Below, in pieces: positions 47,897 through 54,579 of a DNA stretch of 64,000 bases. The stretch lies in assembly GCF_055900595.2 (NCBI RefSeq), contig NZ_CM148325.1; one strand, written 5' to 3'. Positions within the stretch are counted from its first letter, which is position 1, and every line of letters begins with the position of its first letter. Below the pieces are notes generated by a model that made no database searches, was not told the DNA's origin, and was given only the letters and a program-made list of their open reading frames with translations. The translations under genes were made by a program, and so were the position numbers.

Positions 47897-48066
47897 AATG
47901 GCTCACTCAAGCTTGCTCACGATTGATTCCAGTAACAAACCGTATTGTGTAATTATTTCTATAGCAGGTCGCTATATAGGCTTGTATATATCGAATAATT
48001 TGAAAATCAAAGAGATATGTAGATTTTCACTCGAAAGTAGTATTACGTGTAAGTGAGGAGTAATTA

Positions 48067-48080
48067 TTGTTCGGTATCAA
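48067..48080 (-). promoter_or_regulatory. FNR box of the dmsA promoter
   Basis: Minus-strand TTGATACCGAACAA (TTGAT-N4-ATCAA-like) about 170 bp upstream of the dmsA start. Confidence 0.55.
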
Positions 48081-48192
48081 AGGGAGACAAAAAAAGCGCC
48101 CGCAGGAGATTTAACGGTACTTACTCCTCTTGCTGATTTCCTTATTTTTCAATAAGTAAACAAAAACAAGGGGAGCAAATTATCACAAATAA

Positions 48193-49197
48193 TTACTGGT
48201 CGATGGACAGTTTATGGACACTTTCAGCCAGCGGATTAAAGCTGATCGCATCCTGTAAAAAGTCCGGTGAAAAATGCGCATACGTCATCGTTTGCTGAAT
48301 CGTGGCGTGACCCAGGATCCTCTGCAACGTGACGATGTTCCCGCCGTTCATCATGAAATGCGTGGCGAACGTGTGCCGCATGACATGCGTGGCCTGCCCT
48401 TTGGGTAAGTCGGGCTTCACCTCCTGAAGGATCTCCCTGAAACTGAGATAATCAACCTGATATAACAGGCCGGTCCGGCGGGTTTTAATTAACGGCACAA
48501 CGGAATCAGCTACAGGAACCGAGCGCGATTTCCCGTTCTTTGTGTTAAAGAACGTCACCCTGTTACCCACGATGTGTTCCCCGCGAAGCGTTGACGCCTC
48601 TTTCCATCTGGCCCCGGTCGAAAGGCACAGAATGGCAATGCGTCGTGCATCACCCTCAAGCCGTTTCAGAAGGCGATCAATCTCGTCATCTGAAAGAAAG
48701 GCCATTTCTGTATTCTGAACCTTGAGTTTACGTATTCCGCGCACAGGGTTTTCGTTATGATAAACCTCCGCGTCAATTAACAACGAAAACATCGCAGATA
48801 AGGCGCACAGGTCGCGATTGATACTGGACGGCATCAGTCCCGCCTGCAACTTATCCGAGCGATACTCAATCACGAATTTTCGTGTCATCTGGCTGGCGCG
48901 CGGGTCCCCCATTTCACGTATCACCTTCTCCAGTCTGGTTCTGTAGGTATCACCATATGCCTGATTACGACCATCAAGCATCCACCACACCTCAATCAGT
49001 TCTGATAACCGCCGTTGATCGGCGGGCCTTGCCTGCCACGGGTTATTGTGGAAATTCTGAAGAACGTATCTTTCGAATTCCTGCGCCTTTGATTTCAGGG
49101 TGAAAATCTTACGAATCCGCCTTCCTCCCGCCCCCTGAGGCCTTACATCAACCTGATAACGTCCGTCTTTGAGTTGCTTAATCGACATGATCAGCAC
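48193..49197 (-). CDS. int: P2-family tyrosine integrase
   Basis: 334-aa ORF; KQLKDGRYQVDVRP.., AILCLSTGARW.. and ATHVMRHTFATHFMMNGGNIVTLQRILGHATIQQTMTYAHF resemble P2 Int as I remember it. Confidence 0.92.
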   Translation of the reverse strand: MLIMSIKQLKDGRYQVDVRPQGAGGRRIRKIFTLKSKAQEFERYVLQNFHNNPWQARPADQRRLSELIEVWWMLDGRNQAYGDTYRTRLEKVIREMGDPRASQMTRKFVIEYRSDKLQAGLMPSSINRDLCALSAMFSLLIDAEVYHNENPVRGIRKLKVQNTEMAFLSDDEIDRLLKRLEGDARRIAILCLSTGARWKEASTLRGEHIVGNRVTFFNTKNGKSRSVPVADSVVPLIKTRRTGLLYQVDYLSFREILQEVKPDLPKGQATHVMRHTFATHFMMNGGNIVTLQRILGHATIQQTMTYAHFSPDFLQDAISFNPLAESVHKLSIDQ

Positions 49198-49257: not shown

Positions 49258-49599
49258 TCAGCCAGCATTGCGGCCTGATTGGGGTGATTTTTGGGTATTG
49301 CGGGTTGAAACCTGATCGTCCTCCGACTGCGTGGAGCCATCAAGAGAGAGAGCCGGGGCGATCTGACCGGCAACAGGTAGCGTCTTATCTTTGATTAGCC
49401 AGAACATATATTTTTCAAACCGATCCACTTGAAGGACGGCCTCAACAATCTTTGCTCTGGCGATCTTTTGCCCTGACTCATAATTCCTGACAGTTGCCAG
49501 AGATAACCCTGTAATATCAGCAAATTGCTTTTGAGTTAGCCCTTCCGTCTTGCGTATCAAACGCAACTTTTTCGCATAGTCTATTGACAAGATACTCAT
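49258..49599 (-). CDS. CI/C-type immunity repressor (HTH)
   Basis: 113-aa ORF; HTH LTQKQFADITGLSLATVRNYESG and C-terminal ..QIAPAL.. resemble the P2 C repressor; divergent from cox; SD AGGAG upstream. Confidence 0.8.
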   Translation of the reverse strand: MSILSIDYAKKLRLIRKTEGLTQKQFADITGLSLATVRNYESGQKIARAKIVEAVLQVDRFEKYMFWLIKDKTLPVAGQIAPALSLDGSTQSEDDQVSTRNTQKSPQSGRNAG

Positions 49600-49702: not shown

Positions 49703-50224
49703 ATGCGGGAGATTATTGCCGACAAAGAGTTATCTGGCGCTCAACCGGTTCAGGATGATGGCGCGGACAATGAATTCATTGAAGCTGCCAACGACAACGA
49801 ACACCTGGAAACCAAAACCAGACCGTCCTACAAAAAGGGCGCAACCCTACGACTGGACGGCCCAGTCGCAGGACTTGTGTCACTGGAAAAAGGGGCTGCC
49901 TATCTGGGGGTAACAAAATCTGCGCTACGCGCCGCCATTCAGCGCGGGCAGATGCCGGGTCACAAAACGCGCTCAAATCCCGAAGATGAAAAGTCAGACG
50001 GTACATGGTGGTTTAACGCCAAAGCCTGGGACGAACTAGCCGACGAACTACTGGAGTGCGAACCGCCAGAGTGGCACAACTGGAAAAGCTACTGGACGTA
50101 CGACCGCAAGAAAAGAAAGTTTTCACCGGCAAACAAGGAGGACTGCCAGACCGTTAAAGGTAAGCAGGTTTACTCCCCCAGAGTTTCAAAACTGGAGCAA
50201 CTCAAAAACAACCAGCCCGGCTAA
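49703..50224 (+). CDS. Cox/excisionase-like DNA-binding protein (long form, 173 aa)
   Basis: ATG with SD AAGAGGA; central HTH-like segment AAYLGVTKSALRAAIQRGQMPG followed by W-rich segment resembling the Cox fold; the N-terminal 55 aa are extra relative to about 90-aa Cox proteins, so the true start may be internal. Confidence 0.55.
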   Translation: MREIIADKELSGAQPVQDDGADNEFIEAANDNEHLETKTRPSYKKGATLRLDGPVAGLVSLEKGAAYLGVTKSALRAAIQRGQMPGHKTRSNPEDEKSDGTWWFNAKAWDELADELLECEPPEWHNWKSYWTYDRKKRKFSPANKEDCQTVKGKQVYSPRVSKLEQLKNNQPG

Positions 50225-50721: not shown

Positions 50722-51030
50722 ATGCGAAAACATTATTCACAGCCACATTTCCGCAACAGTGCACCACGCAGCAATAACCGCTGGAGCCTGCGCGAAACAC
50801 ACGCAACGCCGGGCGGTCATGCTGTAAAACAGACTGGTCAACACACCTGGCTGATTGAGCAGGCCGGACTCGTGATCCACAGATGCCACCGCAATCCGTT
50901 TACCGGAAACCGCATTTTTGCACTGAGCAGCGGCGACAATCAGTTCGGACAGGATTTCACACTGCACGAAGCCTTGCGAACTGCCGACCGCTTAATCGAG
51001 GGGCGCAGCTTTCAGCATACCGACTACTAA
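50722..51030 (+). CDS. hypothetical early-region protein (102 aa)
   Basis: ORF with strong SD (GCAGGAGATAAATA-ATG); competing antisense ORF 50737..50967 lacks an SD. Confidence 0.5.
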   Translation: MRKHYSQPHFRNSAPRSNNRWSLRETHATPGGHAVKQTGQHTWLIEQAGLVIHRCHRNPFTGNRIFALSSGDNQFGQDFTLHEALRTADRLIEGRSFQHTDY

Positions 51031-51068
51031 GGCAAAAGGAGTCTTAATAAGACAGAAGAGGCAGCAAG

Positions 51069-51311
51069 ATGAAAAGAGCCTATAAAGAACTCATTAACGA
51101 CGCGCTTCAGAATTACCATTACGGACTTACAAGCCGTGGCACTAACGGTGACGCTGTTTCACTTGCAGCACTGACTACAGCAATCAAGGGCCTGACCTGT
51201 TGCGCCTTTGGTTCCGGAGATAATGAAGCTCTGACGGAATTACAGGCCATTAATAAAGACCTGTCTGAAGGAAACGTAATAACCCCCTTTGTAATTCAGG
51301 AGGAAGCATGA
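51069..51311 (+). CDS. hypothetical early-region protein (80 aa)
   Basis: ORF MKRAYKELINDALQNYHYGL.. with SD GAAGAGG upstream. Confidence 0.5.
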   Translation: MKRAYKELINDALQNYHYGLTSRGTNGDAVSLAALTTAIKGLTCCAFGSGDNEALTELQAINKDLSEGNVITPFVIQEEA

Positions 51312-51433
51312 GCGTATTTATGTCATGGTTAATTCTTATCCTTGCCATTATTTGCGCTGTGGAGATTATGCGGGTAATTAACAGCATTAACACCATTGAA
51401 TCGTTATTTACTGGCGATAAGCGCCGTAAATAA
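51308..51433 (+). CDS. putative 41-aa membrane peptide
   Basis: ATGA overlap with the preceding stop; MSVFMSWLILILAIICAVEIMRVINSINTIESLFTGDKRRK; below the ORF-track size cutoff, found by reading the sequence. Confidence 0.3.
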   Translation: MSVFMSWLILILAIICAVEIMRVINSINTIESLFTGDKRRK

Positions 51434-51513
51434 ACAGGCGTTTAACACCAGAAACAACCAGAAACATCCGCTCACGCGGAGGGGTTGACCCGCTCAAAAA
51501 GGAGAAATCAGGA

Positions 51514-51807
51514 ATGCTTAATAATAAAAAAAACCGAATCATTGATAACAGTGAACAGGTCAACAAAATAATCGAAGGCACAAACAAATTAATTAAGAAA
51601 AAAAACAAACTAAGCCGTGAATTAATGGAACATCCGGAAGAAATATTATTAGCCATGATGCACCAGACAGAAGCGATAGCCATCGCCCTTGCCGTGCAGG
51701 CGCTTTCTGAGTTCCGGGAAGAAAACATCAGGCTGGCTCAGGAGCTGAAAAACCTCAGACGTCAGCTTCAGAGCACTGAGGCTGGCACGTCATCACGAAT
51801 ACACTGA
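51514..51807 (+). CDS. hypothetical coiled-coil early-region protein (97 aa)
   Basis: ORF with SD AAAAGGAGAAATCAGGA-ATG; Lys/Asn-rich N-terminus then amphipathic helix. Confidence 0.5.
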   Translation: MLNNKKNRIIDNSEQVNKIIEGTNKLIKKKNKLSRELMEHPEEILLAMMHQTEAIAIALAVQALSEFREENIRLAQELKNLRRQLQSTEAGTSSRIH

Positions 51808-51817
51808 GGGCCACACC

Positions 51818-52027
51818 ATGACTGCAATTCTGAGAAGACGCAATAAAACGCTTTTTACCGATACATCCGGGATGGAATACGAAGTGGAAAGCAGTGTCAT
51901 CGCCACCACCACCCGATGCCCGGCAGGTGACGAACTGATTTACGTCCACCTGACGGACGGGTCACAGATAACCGTCCTGACAGAGTCATGGCGCGAACTC
52001 GAGATAATAAGCGAGGTAAGAACATGA
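51818..52027 (+). CDS. hypothetical early-region protein (69 aa)
   Basis: ORF MTAILRRRNKTLFTDTSGMEYEVESSV.. in the co-oriented string of early genes. Confidence 0.45.
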   Translation: MTAILRRRNKTLFTDTSGMEYEVESSVIATTTRCPAGDELIYVHLTDGSQITVLTESWRELEIISEVRT

Positions 52028-52236
52028 GCAGCAAACACGATACCAACGCACGCAGACCAGGCAAAGAGGCGCGTCACCATATCGCCGTAATGCGCAACCT
52101 GCTTATGAGTGAAATCGACGATTTTGTGGCAGGCCTGGGGCAACCGGGCGAACCAGCAACACCAGGCCAGATACACAGGGAATTACGCCGCCGCGTGGAA
52201 AACGTCGTGGATTACGTCATAAACCCGAACGACTGA
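52024..52236 (+). CDS. hypothetical early-region protein (70 aa)
   Basis: Internal ATG of track ORF 51988..52236 overlapping the preceding stop (ATGA); MSSKHDTNARRPGKEARHHIAVMRNLLMSEIDDF.. Confidence 0.45.
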   Translation: MSSKHDTNARRPGKEARHHIAVMRNLLMSEIDDFVAGLGQPGEPATPGQIHRELRRRVENVVDYVINPND

Positions 52237-52275
52237 CGGGAACATGGCGAGCGTCAGATGACACACGCAGGGCAC

Positions 52276-52758
52276 TTATCGGGAAAAACCGATCGTAATG
52301 GCAGCCATCATCTTTTCAGCGAAAGAGAGAGATTCACGATGACTGATATTCAGAGACATACAGGCTTTGTTGTACGCCACATTTTCCATGCATTCCAGGA
52401 CAGGAGAGTCATGCATCTCAAGCTCTGGAAGGCGTGCCAGCAGAGCTTCCGTACTGAGGAGGGCGCTTTTGGTAATCAACTCATTGTAGCGATGGGCATG
52501 CTCACTCGCCGCCTGCGCACGTTGCCCGAAACGACATATGAAATTACAGGCTCCGAGAACCACCACCACTGCCCCAAGCACCCAGCCGAAATGCCAGCCG
52601 GCTACGATGAACGCACCCGCCGCAAGGATCAAAATGTTGATGATCGCATCAAGGCGACGATTGAATACCGCCGCGATGCGCTCCAGCCAGTAGCTGTACC
52701 AGAGACGGAACATGACCTCATCCCGTTCTCTCGATTTTTTACGTTGGTTGTTTTGCAT
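52276..52758 (-). CDS. reverse-oriented two-TM membrane protein (160 aa), candidate moron
   Basis: Minus-strand ORF with paired hydrophobic helices (AIINILILAAGAFIVAGW / FGWVLGAVVVVLGACNFICRF) flanked by basic residues, SD GAGGG upstream; the overlapping plus-strand ORF 52258..52893 is His/Arg-rich and looks non-coding. Confidence 0.45.
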   Translation of the reverse strand: MQNNQRKKSRERDEVMFRLWYSYWLERIAAVFNRRLDAIINILILAAGAFIVAGWHFGWVLGAVVVVLGACNFICRFGQRAQAASEHAHRYNELITKSALLSTEALLARLPELEMHDSPVLECMENVAYNKACMSLNISHRESLSFAEKMMAAITIGFSR

Positions 52759-52992
52759 GGTGTTTTATCCCTCATCGTCATCGCTCTGCCCCTAATCAGC
52801 GCAGAGTGCAGGGTAACCTGGCTCGTGGAATTTTTGCAGCCAGACATCTTTACCCCCGGGCGTGTTGAACAAAGTGTCCGCCAGATCCACTGAACGGCGG
52901 ATTCATCAATGCTAACACGCCCTTCTTTTCCGGTTGAAGGCGAAAAAACCGGACCATTACCCCGACACAAAACAGAACAACGGAGAACAACT

Positions 52993-53547
52993 ATGCCCGC
53001 ACTTAAACCTATGGGTGTATCAGGTGTACCACCGAAGCATGTCAGAGCCTGGACACAACAGGAAGATGCTCTACTGGTCGGTTTATACCCCTCCCACACC
53101 GTACCAGAACTGACAAAACACTTTCAGAGAACCGGGCCAGCAATACGAAGCCGCATCCGTCTTTTGCTCTCTCAGGGGGTTATCCACACCAAACAACCCC
53201 CCCTGAATACAAAAGAACTCAACACGCTCATCAGGAATCGCCACACAAAAACCATCCGGGAACTCGCGAATGAACTGGGGCGCTCGACATCCACGGTGGG
53301 ACTGAACCTGAGAAAAAGAGGGTACCGGTTCAGGAAATACGGGGAACTCCACCACAGAGCCAGATACAGCGATCACCTGGTGGAGTTGGTAACTGAACTG
53401 CGCGATGAACAGGGGATGACATTCAGCGAAATCAGAAAGTACATCCGGGACACGGCCGGGATATCCCTTAAAAGATGGGTCCTCGCCCGGCTTTACGCAC
53501 GATATACCGCCGCTGACACCGTGCTTTGCGAACTGCTACCGGACTGA
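52993..53547 (+). CDS. putative DNA-binding protein with repeated HTH-like segments (184 aa)
   Basis: Internal ATG of track ORF 52909..53547 with SD ACGGAG; segments ..TIRELANELGRSTSTVGLNLRKRG.. and ..MTFSEIRKYIRDTAGISLKRW.. look HTH-like. Confidence 0.5.
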   Translation: MPALKPMGVSGVPPKHVRAWTQQEDALLVGLYPSHTVPELTKHFQRTGPAIRSRIRLLLSQGVIHTKQPPLNTKELNTLIRNRHTKTIRELANELGRSTSTVGLNLRKRGYRFRKYGELHHRARYSDHLVELVTELRDEQGMTFSEIRKYIRDTAGISLKRWVLARLYARYTAADTVLCELLPD

Positions 53548-53637
53548 GTAACCACTATGCACACACAAAAAAACCGCTTGCCATGCCGCAATCAGTCAGG
53601 TTACATTTCCGCTGCACCTCATAAAACGGGTGCCGGG

Positions 53638-53854
53638 ATTGCAACCCCCGCTGACAACTACAGCGCACAACCGCGCCAGCGGTTTTTTTGTGCGTACCGT
53701 ATCGCCACGTCTTTTTCGCGCCAGAATTATGGCGGGGCGTATGGGGCCGACTTCGGTCGGGCCGGTTTCTGTAGTTGCCGGTGGTTGCAACCCTGTACGT
53801 CTCGCCACCCAGAATTGCAACCTCTGGATGGTGAGTTTTCAAAACTTGCAACTA
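53638..53854. repeat. cluster of four (A/G/C)TTGCAAC(C/T) repeats with a UUCG-loop hairpin
   Basis: ATTGCAACC (about 53638), GTTGCAACC (about 53784), ATTGCAACC (about 53814), CTTGCAACT (about 53845); hairpin GGCCGAC-TTCG-GTCGGGCC at about 53745-53763. Confidence 0.5.
53669..53689 (+). terminator. rho-independent terminator
   Basis: CCGCGCC-A-GCGG stem followed by a T7 run, downstream of the 52993..53547 gene. Confidence 0.55.
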
Positions 53855-53867
53855 CAGAGGCCACACC

Positions 53868-54092
53868 ATGGCAAACCGCAAACAACAGCGCGCATACGCT
53901 GCGCGTCGTCACATCCAGACTGAAATCAACCGCAGACTTTTCCGCGCATTCCGCGTCGCGCATATCATGCACATCAATATGCTGCATGAGCGCAGCCACG
54001 CACTGTCAAACATGTATTCCGCCGCTGTATTCAGCTACCTGGCGGATGACCTGCGCGAGCTGCAGGACCTCATTAACCAGCACCACCACTAA
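53868..54092 (+). CDS. hypothetical small protein (74 aa)
   Basis: ORF MANRKQQRAYAARRHIQTEINRRLFRAF.. with SD AGAGG 7 nt upstream, directly after the TTGCAAC repeats. Confidence 0.4.
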   Translation: MANRKQQRAYAARRHIQTEINRRLFRAFRVAHIMHINMLHERSHALSNMYSAAVFSYLADDLRELQDLINQHHH

Positions 54093-54160
54093 TCAACATC
54101 CCGGAGCCATCCCGCCCCCGTACGCGGGAGGCTTCCGCACGTCCGTTTCCGGAGGTTCTC

Positions 54161-54574
54161 ATGAAGAGCGTTAAGGGACTTTCAGATATTCAGGATTTTT
54201 TTAACTGGATGTGGGCGGTGGATCCACGCCTCGCTTCCCGTCTCAATGACCTGCACGACTATTACCGCCGCGCCTGTAAACAGGCAGCCCGCAGCGCTGC
54301 CACATACGGGGATTTTTCCTTCACCGTTGACGACCGTTACCGCGTGGATGTCAGAGACCAGAACCACAGCCTGGAGCTGGGCCTGTTCCACATCAACGGG
54401 TGCGACAGCAGCGTTATCAGCTGGTCATCGTCAGAAATGGTGCTCGTTCTGGAAATGACCACCCACAGCGTGGTCGTGAAAGGGATTAAAACAGCAGAAG
54501 ACTTTATCGCTGAATACCAGCGCCTTCTTGTGCTGTACCGGGCTGCATTTCAGAAGGCAACAGCAGGGGAGTAA
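54161..54574 (+). CDS. hypothetical protein upstream of gpA (137 aa)
   Basis: ORF with SD GGAGG; ends 5 nt before the gpA start. Confidence 0.55.
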   Translation: MKSVKGLSDIQDFFNWMWAVDPRLASRLNDLHDYYRRACKQAARSAATYGDFSFTVDDRYRVDVRDQNHSLELGLFHINGCDSSVISWSSSEMVLVLEMTTHSVVVKGIKTAEDFIAEYQRLLVLYRAAFQKATAGE

Positions 54575-54579
54575 GCGGA

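Follow-up and report, generated by a model that had tools for sequence, protein, structure and literature searches.

The window (the whole stretch of 64,000 nt of Escherichia coli DNA that was analysed, from contig NZ_CM148325.1) carries in a P2-like prophage a leftward gene for a 160-aa protein with two predicted transmembrane (TM) helices, and we regard this gene as a new variant of the SLATT effectors that stands alone and is borne by phages. Judged by its modelled structure and by profile matches, the encoded protein belongs to a distant branch of the SLATT superfamily that has not been curated, and stands outside every defined SLATT family. An effector function of this protein in abortive infection or exclusion is plausible from the predicted fold and the genomic position.

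The ORF was located at exactly 52276..52758 on the minus strand with an ATG start, and the same ORF was called by RefSeq/PGAP in the 100%-identical E. coli genomes as the hypothetical protein WP_029399959.1. A Shine-Dalgarno sequence, GAGGGA (52768..52773, minus strand), lies 10 nt upstream of the ATG. In the original prediction, a leftward ORF with its own Shine-Dalgarno sequence had been placed amid rightward early genes, and the exact coordinates, the GAGGG 10 nt before the ATG and the identical PGAP call all agreed with it. The choice of strand, left uncertain at that stage, was then decided by comparison with homologues. On the plus strand, an overlapping ORF of 211 aa (52258..52893) runs in the register where codon position 2 coincides with that of the minus-strand gene. 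For the codon-position analysis, the window gene and its homologues from L003, L005, L006 and the Yersinia phage (L002), with amino acid identities of 40-63%, were codon-aligned, and L019 was added as the fifth homologue for the calculation of dN/dS values by the NG86 method. In the minus frame, differences at codon position 3 exceeded those at position 1, and these in turn those at position 2, in every pair (e.g. 0.62/0.34/0.20), and dN/dS values ranged from 0.06 to 0.36 (11 of the 15 pairs, those with computable dS). The corresponding dN/dS values of the plus frame ranged from 0.81 to 1.42, i.e. around 1. The plus frame was also found to be interrupted in the homologues (one stop in L005 and two stops in L006), its amino acid identity was below that of the minus frame in all homologue pairs, and its product gave no match in NCBIfam, PADLOC or PHROGs. 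It stays open in the window because the minus-strand gene uses no TTA, CTA or TCA codons.

By these comparisons of coding sequences, the minus strand carries the real gene, under purifying selection, and the 211-aa frame is a shadow ORF, not a gene. The earlier assumption that the plus-strand ORF is non-coding is upheld, and the search for a homology by which this ORF might have been recognized as a conserved phage protein, in the three databases named above, returned nothing. The plus-strand ORF is longer than the minus-strand one, is co-oriented with the operon and was picked by the annotators of Yersinia phage vB_YenM_42.18 (gp08) and Fels-2 (STM2733.1); against the stops, the dN/dS values, the lower identity, the lack of a family match and the codon usage that accounts for its openness, it is nonetheless extremely improbable that it is a true early gene or that both strands are coding.

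The prophage (48-64 kb of the window) belongs to the P2-like (Peduoviridae) type and is integrated beside dmsA. The stretch at 51000-54600 was found to be 100% identical in E. coli TUM1886, Ch1, B771 and others, and the gene order was taken from the RefSeq annotation of the identical stretch together with the ORF list. The integrase (48193-49197) and the C-type HTH repressor (49258-49599) are encoded on the minus strand. They are followed on the plus strand by Cox (49703-50224) and a run of small rightward early genes, which extends between Cox and the minus-strand target ORF (52276-52758). Beyond the target ORF, the plus strand carries the genes of a 184-aa DNA-binding protein (52993-53547; phrog_323, 'transcriptional regulator, D5-like', E=2e-27), the isrK RNA (53614-53689; Rfam, 60 bits), the C4 antisense RNA (53725-53812; Rfam, 80 bits), a 74-aa 'derepression protein' (53868-54092; phrog_3688), a 137-aa protein (54161-54574) and the replication endonuclease gpA (54580-57090). 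According to the RefSeq annotation of the 100%-identical genomes, all early genes from cox to gpA are opposite in strand to the target ORF.

The divergently oriented 184-aa neighbour was considered as an obligate partner or sensor of the 2-TM protein, on the model of the NAP-effector 'PANGU' systems, and was rejected. The two genes occur together in no loci other than the window, L005 and L006; in L003, Fels-2, the Yersinia phage and the lambdoid and Mu-like loci, the 184-aa gene is missing. It is thus not part of a conserved system.

All 11 family proteins with a readable neighbourhood (the window copy, two homologues from phage records and eight of the nine contig look-ups) were found in phage contexts. 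In the P2-like prophages (L003/L004, L005, L006, L055, the Yersinia phage and Fels-2), the gene lies antisense in the early region in differing slots. In the seven P2-like IMG/VR contigs (L019-L024 and L029), it lies between cox and C (Pe-cox), co-oriented with C and int. P2-like slots are thus not the same from phage to phage, as seen after a fil-like gene (Fels-2), before gpB (Yersinia phage) and between Pe and cox (L019). In L019, a promoter-like site with 11/12 matches abuts C and points leftward across the gene towards cox, so that this copy, too, would be antisense within the early transcript. In the lambdoid prophages (L007-L010), the gene occupies the interval between the PL operon and cI in the immunity region, antisense to both, and another cI-proximal locus (L049) has a similar placement. 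In the Salmonella Mu-like prophages (L011-L013), it is found in the late region between the lysis/DUF1804 genes and terminase, again antisense. Antisense placement is therefore nearly constant but not universal, since one distant member (L051/L052) is co-oriented with the late genes upstream of terminase. Among 5426 complete E. coli genomes, the window subfamily was present in 31 and the lambdoid subfamily in 51. The GC content at the gene (0.52-0.54, as compared with 0.38-0.59 across the early region) gave no sign of foreign origin; AT skew alone dips at the gene, as expected for an inverted gene.

The status of a moron (accessory gene), as originally predicted, is well supported by these genomic comparisons, namely by the reversed orientation, the sporadic carriage (31/5426) and the non-homologous slots in P2-like, lambdoid and Mu-like phages. 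The independent transcription that had been part of the same proposal found no counterpart in the scans: no sigma-70 match of at least 8/12 was detected by the consensus scan within 260 nt upstream of the minus-strand gene, and no terminator was detected after it. An extended -10 candidate was spotted by eye in L019. As the gene is antisense to the early operon and is yet under purifying selection, it should have its own promoter, and it is presumably expressed in the lysogen. The alignment also brought out a 40-nt intergenic block with a CCGGTT/AACCGG inverted repeat (52913..52952) as a candidate regulatory site. It hardly varies among four lineages, although the identity of their 2-TM proteins is no more than 55-67%. 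Since L003 has kept the block without having the 184-aa gene, an operator or a promoter element of the divergent region may be located there.

For the analysis of the protein architecture, hydropathy (Kyte-Doolittle), a 105-sequence alignment and an AF2 model built from this alignment were used. Two adjacent hydrophobic segments were found at about aa 37-56 and 58-76, flanked by R27, R34 and R35 on the N side and by R76, R80 and R90 on the C side, and joined by an uncharged loop of about five residues. By the positive-inside rule, the arginines outside the hairpin and the lack of charges in the loop predict an N-in/C-in topology with minimal periplasmic exposure. The AF2 model (pLDDT 96.3, pTM 0.88) consists of a 51-residue helix (2-52), which combines the N-terminal cytoplasmic segment with TM1, a tight turn, the TM2 helix (58-75) and an all-helical tail of 84 aa, and the two helices of the TM hairpin have pLDDT values above 95. 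Four cytoplasmic helices are predicted to pack back on the N-terminal helix. The two hydrophobic helices flanked by basic residues and followed by a soluble tail, as first described from the letters, were thus recovered by hydropathy, arginine positions and the AF2 model.

On the minus strand of the window, the predicted N-terminal cytoplasmic helix (aa 1-36, with a basic start and continuous with TM1, by AF2 and conservation) corresponds to 52651..52758. TM helix 1 (aa 37-56, with the conserved G48, by hydropathy, AF2 and conservation) corresponds to 52591..52650, and TM helix 2 (aa 58-76, by hydropathy and AF2), which shows a small-xxx-small pattern and in which G62 is near-invariant, to 52531..52587. 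The C-terminal cytoplasmic four-helix domain (aa 77-160; AF2 helices 77-99, 103-114, 122-135 and 146-155) corresponds to 52279..52530. Conserved residues in the 105-sequence alignment are F17, Y21-S22-Y23, L25-E26 and R35-x-D37 in the N-terminal part, G62 in TM2 (kept in 95 of the 105 sequences), and Q87, Y91, L94, D117-S118 and A128 in the C-terminal part, so that they are almost all cytoplasmic or intramembrane. Small or polar residues stand in the TM helices at positions 41, 44, 49, 66, 69 and 72, an arrangement that would allow the helices to pack against one another in an oligomer.

For the assignment of the family, a profile of five homologues was searched against 1.84 billion cluster representatives, and 208 representative clusters were found to be related at E<1e-3. 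Nearly all of them are 150-165 aa in length, and the family is therefore one of stand-alone proteins. In PHROGs, the protein matched phrog_6315 over its full length (E=5e-65, 151 of the 152 profile positions), and phrog_11791 was found as a more distant relative, both without an annotated function. No published study of the family was found in the literature, and no solved structure resembling the protein was found in the PDB by profile search or Foldseek.

The relationship to SLATT, which like the decayed micro-ORF upstream of the gene had no place in the original prediction, was obtained from structures and from profiles. Foldseek against AFDB50 returned full-length matches (TM 0.8-0.94), and many of the matched proteins bear the name SLATT or DUF4231 in UniProt; the best matches in BFVD were giant-virus SLATT proteins outside the subfamily (prob 1.0, TMq 0.55-0.69, E about 1e-2). 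In NCBIfam, the window protein alone gave a sub-threshold match to SLATT_1 (E=0.006, 16.5 bits against the cut-off of 41), and the top three matches of the family HMM consensus were SLATT_4 (3.1e-7), SLATT_1 (1.2e-3) and SLATT_5 (4.5e-3), the score for SLATT_4 (30.4 bits) being below the curated cut-off of 55. SLATT_4 was also the top Pfam match of the consensus (i-E=0.013), and sub-threshold SLATT_4 matches in the same register were obtained with six of ten individual members. In PADLOC, the consensus matched the CBASS '2TM effector' (5.5e-4) and RTasSLATT. The curated SLATT cut-offs of NCBIfam and Pfam were reached by neither the window protein nor the family consensus, and because all profile scores are below curated cut-offs, the protein is called a distant branch and not a member of a defined family. 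Scans of single sequences gave little: Pfam returned only noise for the window protein (BaxI_1 at 0.022), and no Pfam family recurred at E<=0.001 among all 105 aligned members. PADLOC-DB 2.0 returned only LeoBC (E=0.018) for the window protein and so no convincing defence model, and for ten members it returned one RTasSLATT match (1.5e-4) and one 2TM effector match (0.024), which were likewise unconvincing.

[quoted passage not shown] DRT10 requires its SLATT component, a transmembrane effector and predicted pore-former (2026 DRT10 preprint); pore formation by SLATT proteins is still a prediction in the literature. Unlike these systems, the window family occurs alone: in all loci read, with flanks that extended at most about 6-8 kb, depending on the contig, no cyclase, SLOG, TIR or RT was found beside the gene, and no other sensor adjoins it in these contexts. 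It further differs in lying antisense inside temperate-phage operons, and in that it is usually preceded by a proline-rich micro-ORF, which is not described for SLATT systems.

Small inner-membrane proteins of phages and prophages with exclusion or abortive-infection functions include lambda RexB, P22 SieB, T4 Imm and HK97 gp15; several such proteins are encoded in or beside the immunity region, and RexB needs RexA. The placement in the immunity region is shared by the lambdoid homologues of the window gene. Exclusion without cell death, in which incoming genomes are stopped at the inner membrane as by T4 Imm or HK97 gp15, was accordingly weighed as the function of a small, prophage-borne inner-membrane protein whose homologues lie in or beside immunity regions, and such a mechanism requires no sensor partner. 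The periplasmic loop of only about five residues, together with conserved residues that are almost all cytoplasmic or intramembrane, leaves little surface to meet an injection apparatus. According to the predicted topology, this short exposure argues against exclusion at the periplasmic injection machinery, but not against exclusion within the membrane. The fold is, moreover, that of effectors tied to cell-suicide systems, and neither PADLOC nor PHROGs showed any sequence or profile similarity to the known exclusion proteins. Non-lethal exclusion is on balance regarded as unlikely.

A role in the phage's own cycle, as a holin/antiholin-like lysis timer, a membrane anchor or a lytic host-takeover factor, was weighed in the same way. 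Class II holins have two TM helices in N-in/C-in topology, and the window protein shares their size class and predicted topology; the co-oriented position of the distant member (L051/L052) just upstream of terminase and that of the Mu-like copies between lysis genes and terminase would also fit such a role. The window protein differs from class II holins in having about 120 residues of structured cytoplasmic helices, a long domain which holins lack, and its gene differs from theirs in lying outside the lysis cassette and antisense to lytic operons, the latter in P2-like, lambdoid and Mu-like phages alike. No holin match was found in Pfam for the window protein or the 105 aligned members. The gene was never found inside a lysis cassette, its position is variable, and its carriage is sporadic in both subfamilies (31 and 51 of the 5426 E. 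coli genomes, respectively). A function in the phage's own cycle is thus held to be rather improbable.

Upstream of the 2-TM gene, a micro-ORF of 26-58 aa was found to end 2-12 nt before the start codon in 20 loci of P2-like, lambdoid and Mu-like phages; the micro-ORF was seen in L005, L003, L018-L032, L014 (Fels-2), L007 (lambdoid), L011 (Mu-like), L049 and L055. The encoded peptides have an acidic tail behind the motif D-x-F-H-V-[LP]-x-[KR]-P-x-P-x-P-E, and the codon-position differences (0.26/0.22/0.58) are as expected for coding sequence. Neither PHROGs nor the phage records examined contain the micro-ORF, and it was called as a gene in only some assemblies (L011, L049 and L055; 37-58 aa). 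In the window, a decayed remnant (52765..52847, minus strand) was recognized by alignment with L003 and L005 and by frame analysis; it has lost 1 nt after codon 4 and is interrupted by an in-frame TAG at 52792-52794. The micro-ORF is entirely lost in L006 and missing from the L033-L047 lineages, and in all these lineages (window, L006 and L033-L047) the 2-TM gene is intact and has kept all family-conserved residues.

The pairing of a membrane protein and a microprotein would be reminiscent of a toxin-antitoxin-like addiction pair, in which the 2-TM protein is the toxin and the microprotein the antidote, stabilizing the prophage. The coding-type micro-ORF at a short distance in three phage types is in line with such a pair. 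No more than a hint comes from an AF2 model of a microprotein-linker-2TM fusion, in which the pLDDT was about 50-70 in the motif and about 35 in the linker, and for which no PAE or contacts were returned. Since the 2-TM gene stays intact where the micro-ORF is decayed (window), deleted (L006) or absent (L033-L047), the microprotein is not an indispensable antidote. Its candidacy as an essential antitoxin is disfavoured on the same ground, and the addiction pair is considered improbable. A modulating or regulatory role of the microprotein appears more likely from these comparisons of lineages.

A bolder proposal, and a rather doubtful one, would take the family and the coupled micro-ORF together as a minimal, so far undescribed immunity module of prophages. 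The 2-TM protein would be a self-contained SLATT pore that needs no nucleotide signal for gating, and the microprotein, or the translation of its proline-rich frame, would be the switch that responds to infection. The window copy, having lost the micro-ORF, would then be a derivative that is armed constitutively or triggered in another way.

The reading preferred here, of a stand-alone SLATT-fold accessory gene by which a competing infection is aborted through membrane permeabilization, is a tentative one, to which we assign slightly less than an even chance. The effector idea gains support from the SLATT-like fold, and the reasoning depends on what SLATT proteins are thought to do, as in DRT10. 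While the prophage is repressed, the gene would be transcribed from its own promoter, and after induction, convergent early lytic transcription would damp it. The 2-TM protein would reside in the inner membrane, its closed state being held by the cytoplasmic helical bundle. Upon superinfection, a cytoplasmic cue would release the protein, which might then oligomerize via those faces of its TM helices that carry small and polar residues (G48, G62 and the S/T/Q/N positions), and the oligomer would permeabilize or depolarize the membrane, so that the competing infection would be aborted. In most lineages, the proline-rich microprotein (26-58 aa), whose translation is coupled to that of the 2-TM gene, would probably tune this system; the window protein would act alone because its micro-ORF partner is decayed.

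How SLATT effectors detect signals and respond to them has been called 'a central open question' (2026 DRT10 preprint), and a sensor-less SLATT-like protein of 160 aa that is kept by phages would be about the simplest system for the study of gating and pore formation. If lysogens are protected by it, a defence module of a single gene (or of the gene and the micro-ORF) would be spread across P2-like, lambdoid and Mu-like prophages, and such a module would go undetected by PADLOC-DB 2.0 (2023).

Several further features of the prophage were recorded. The isrK and C4 RNAs lie directly upstream of the 'derepression protein', within the P2-like early operon and just before gpA, and the three together resemble an RNA-immunity and antirepressor module of the P1/P4 type. 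In most of the other approximately 1200 E. coli genomes with a match (of 5426), the part in common with the region is this module of about 520 bp (53557-54082); its copies have 80-92% identity and often adjoin an 'ash family protein'. A match to the STnc130 sRNA (48000-48121, plus strand, 107 bits), truncated because the searched stretch begins there, was found just beyond the integrase end of the prophage, and dmsA is located on the same, integrase side. The slot between gpA and portal (57087-59640) is the P2 'hotspot' of Rousset et al. 2022; its content in the window is limited to small hypothetical genes, one truncated pseudogene and one hypothetical protein of 236 aa.

As a practical matter, public phage records carry a wrong-strand annotation at this gene. 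In Yersinia phage vB_YenM_42.18, the shadow strand is annotated in place of the 2-TM gene as gp08 (L002, 4788-5453), and in Fels-2 as STM2733.1 (L014, 3914-4318).
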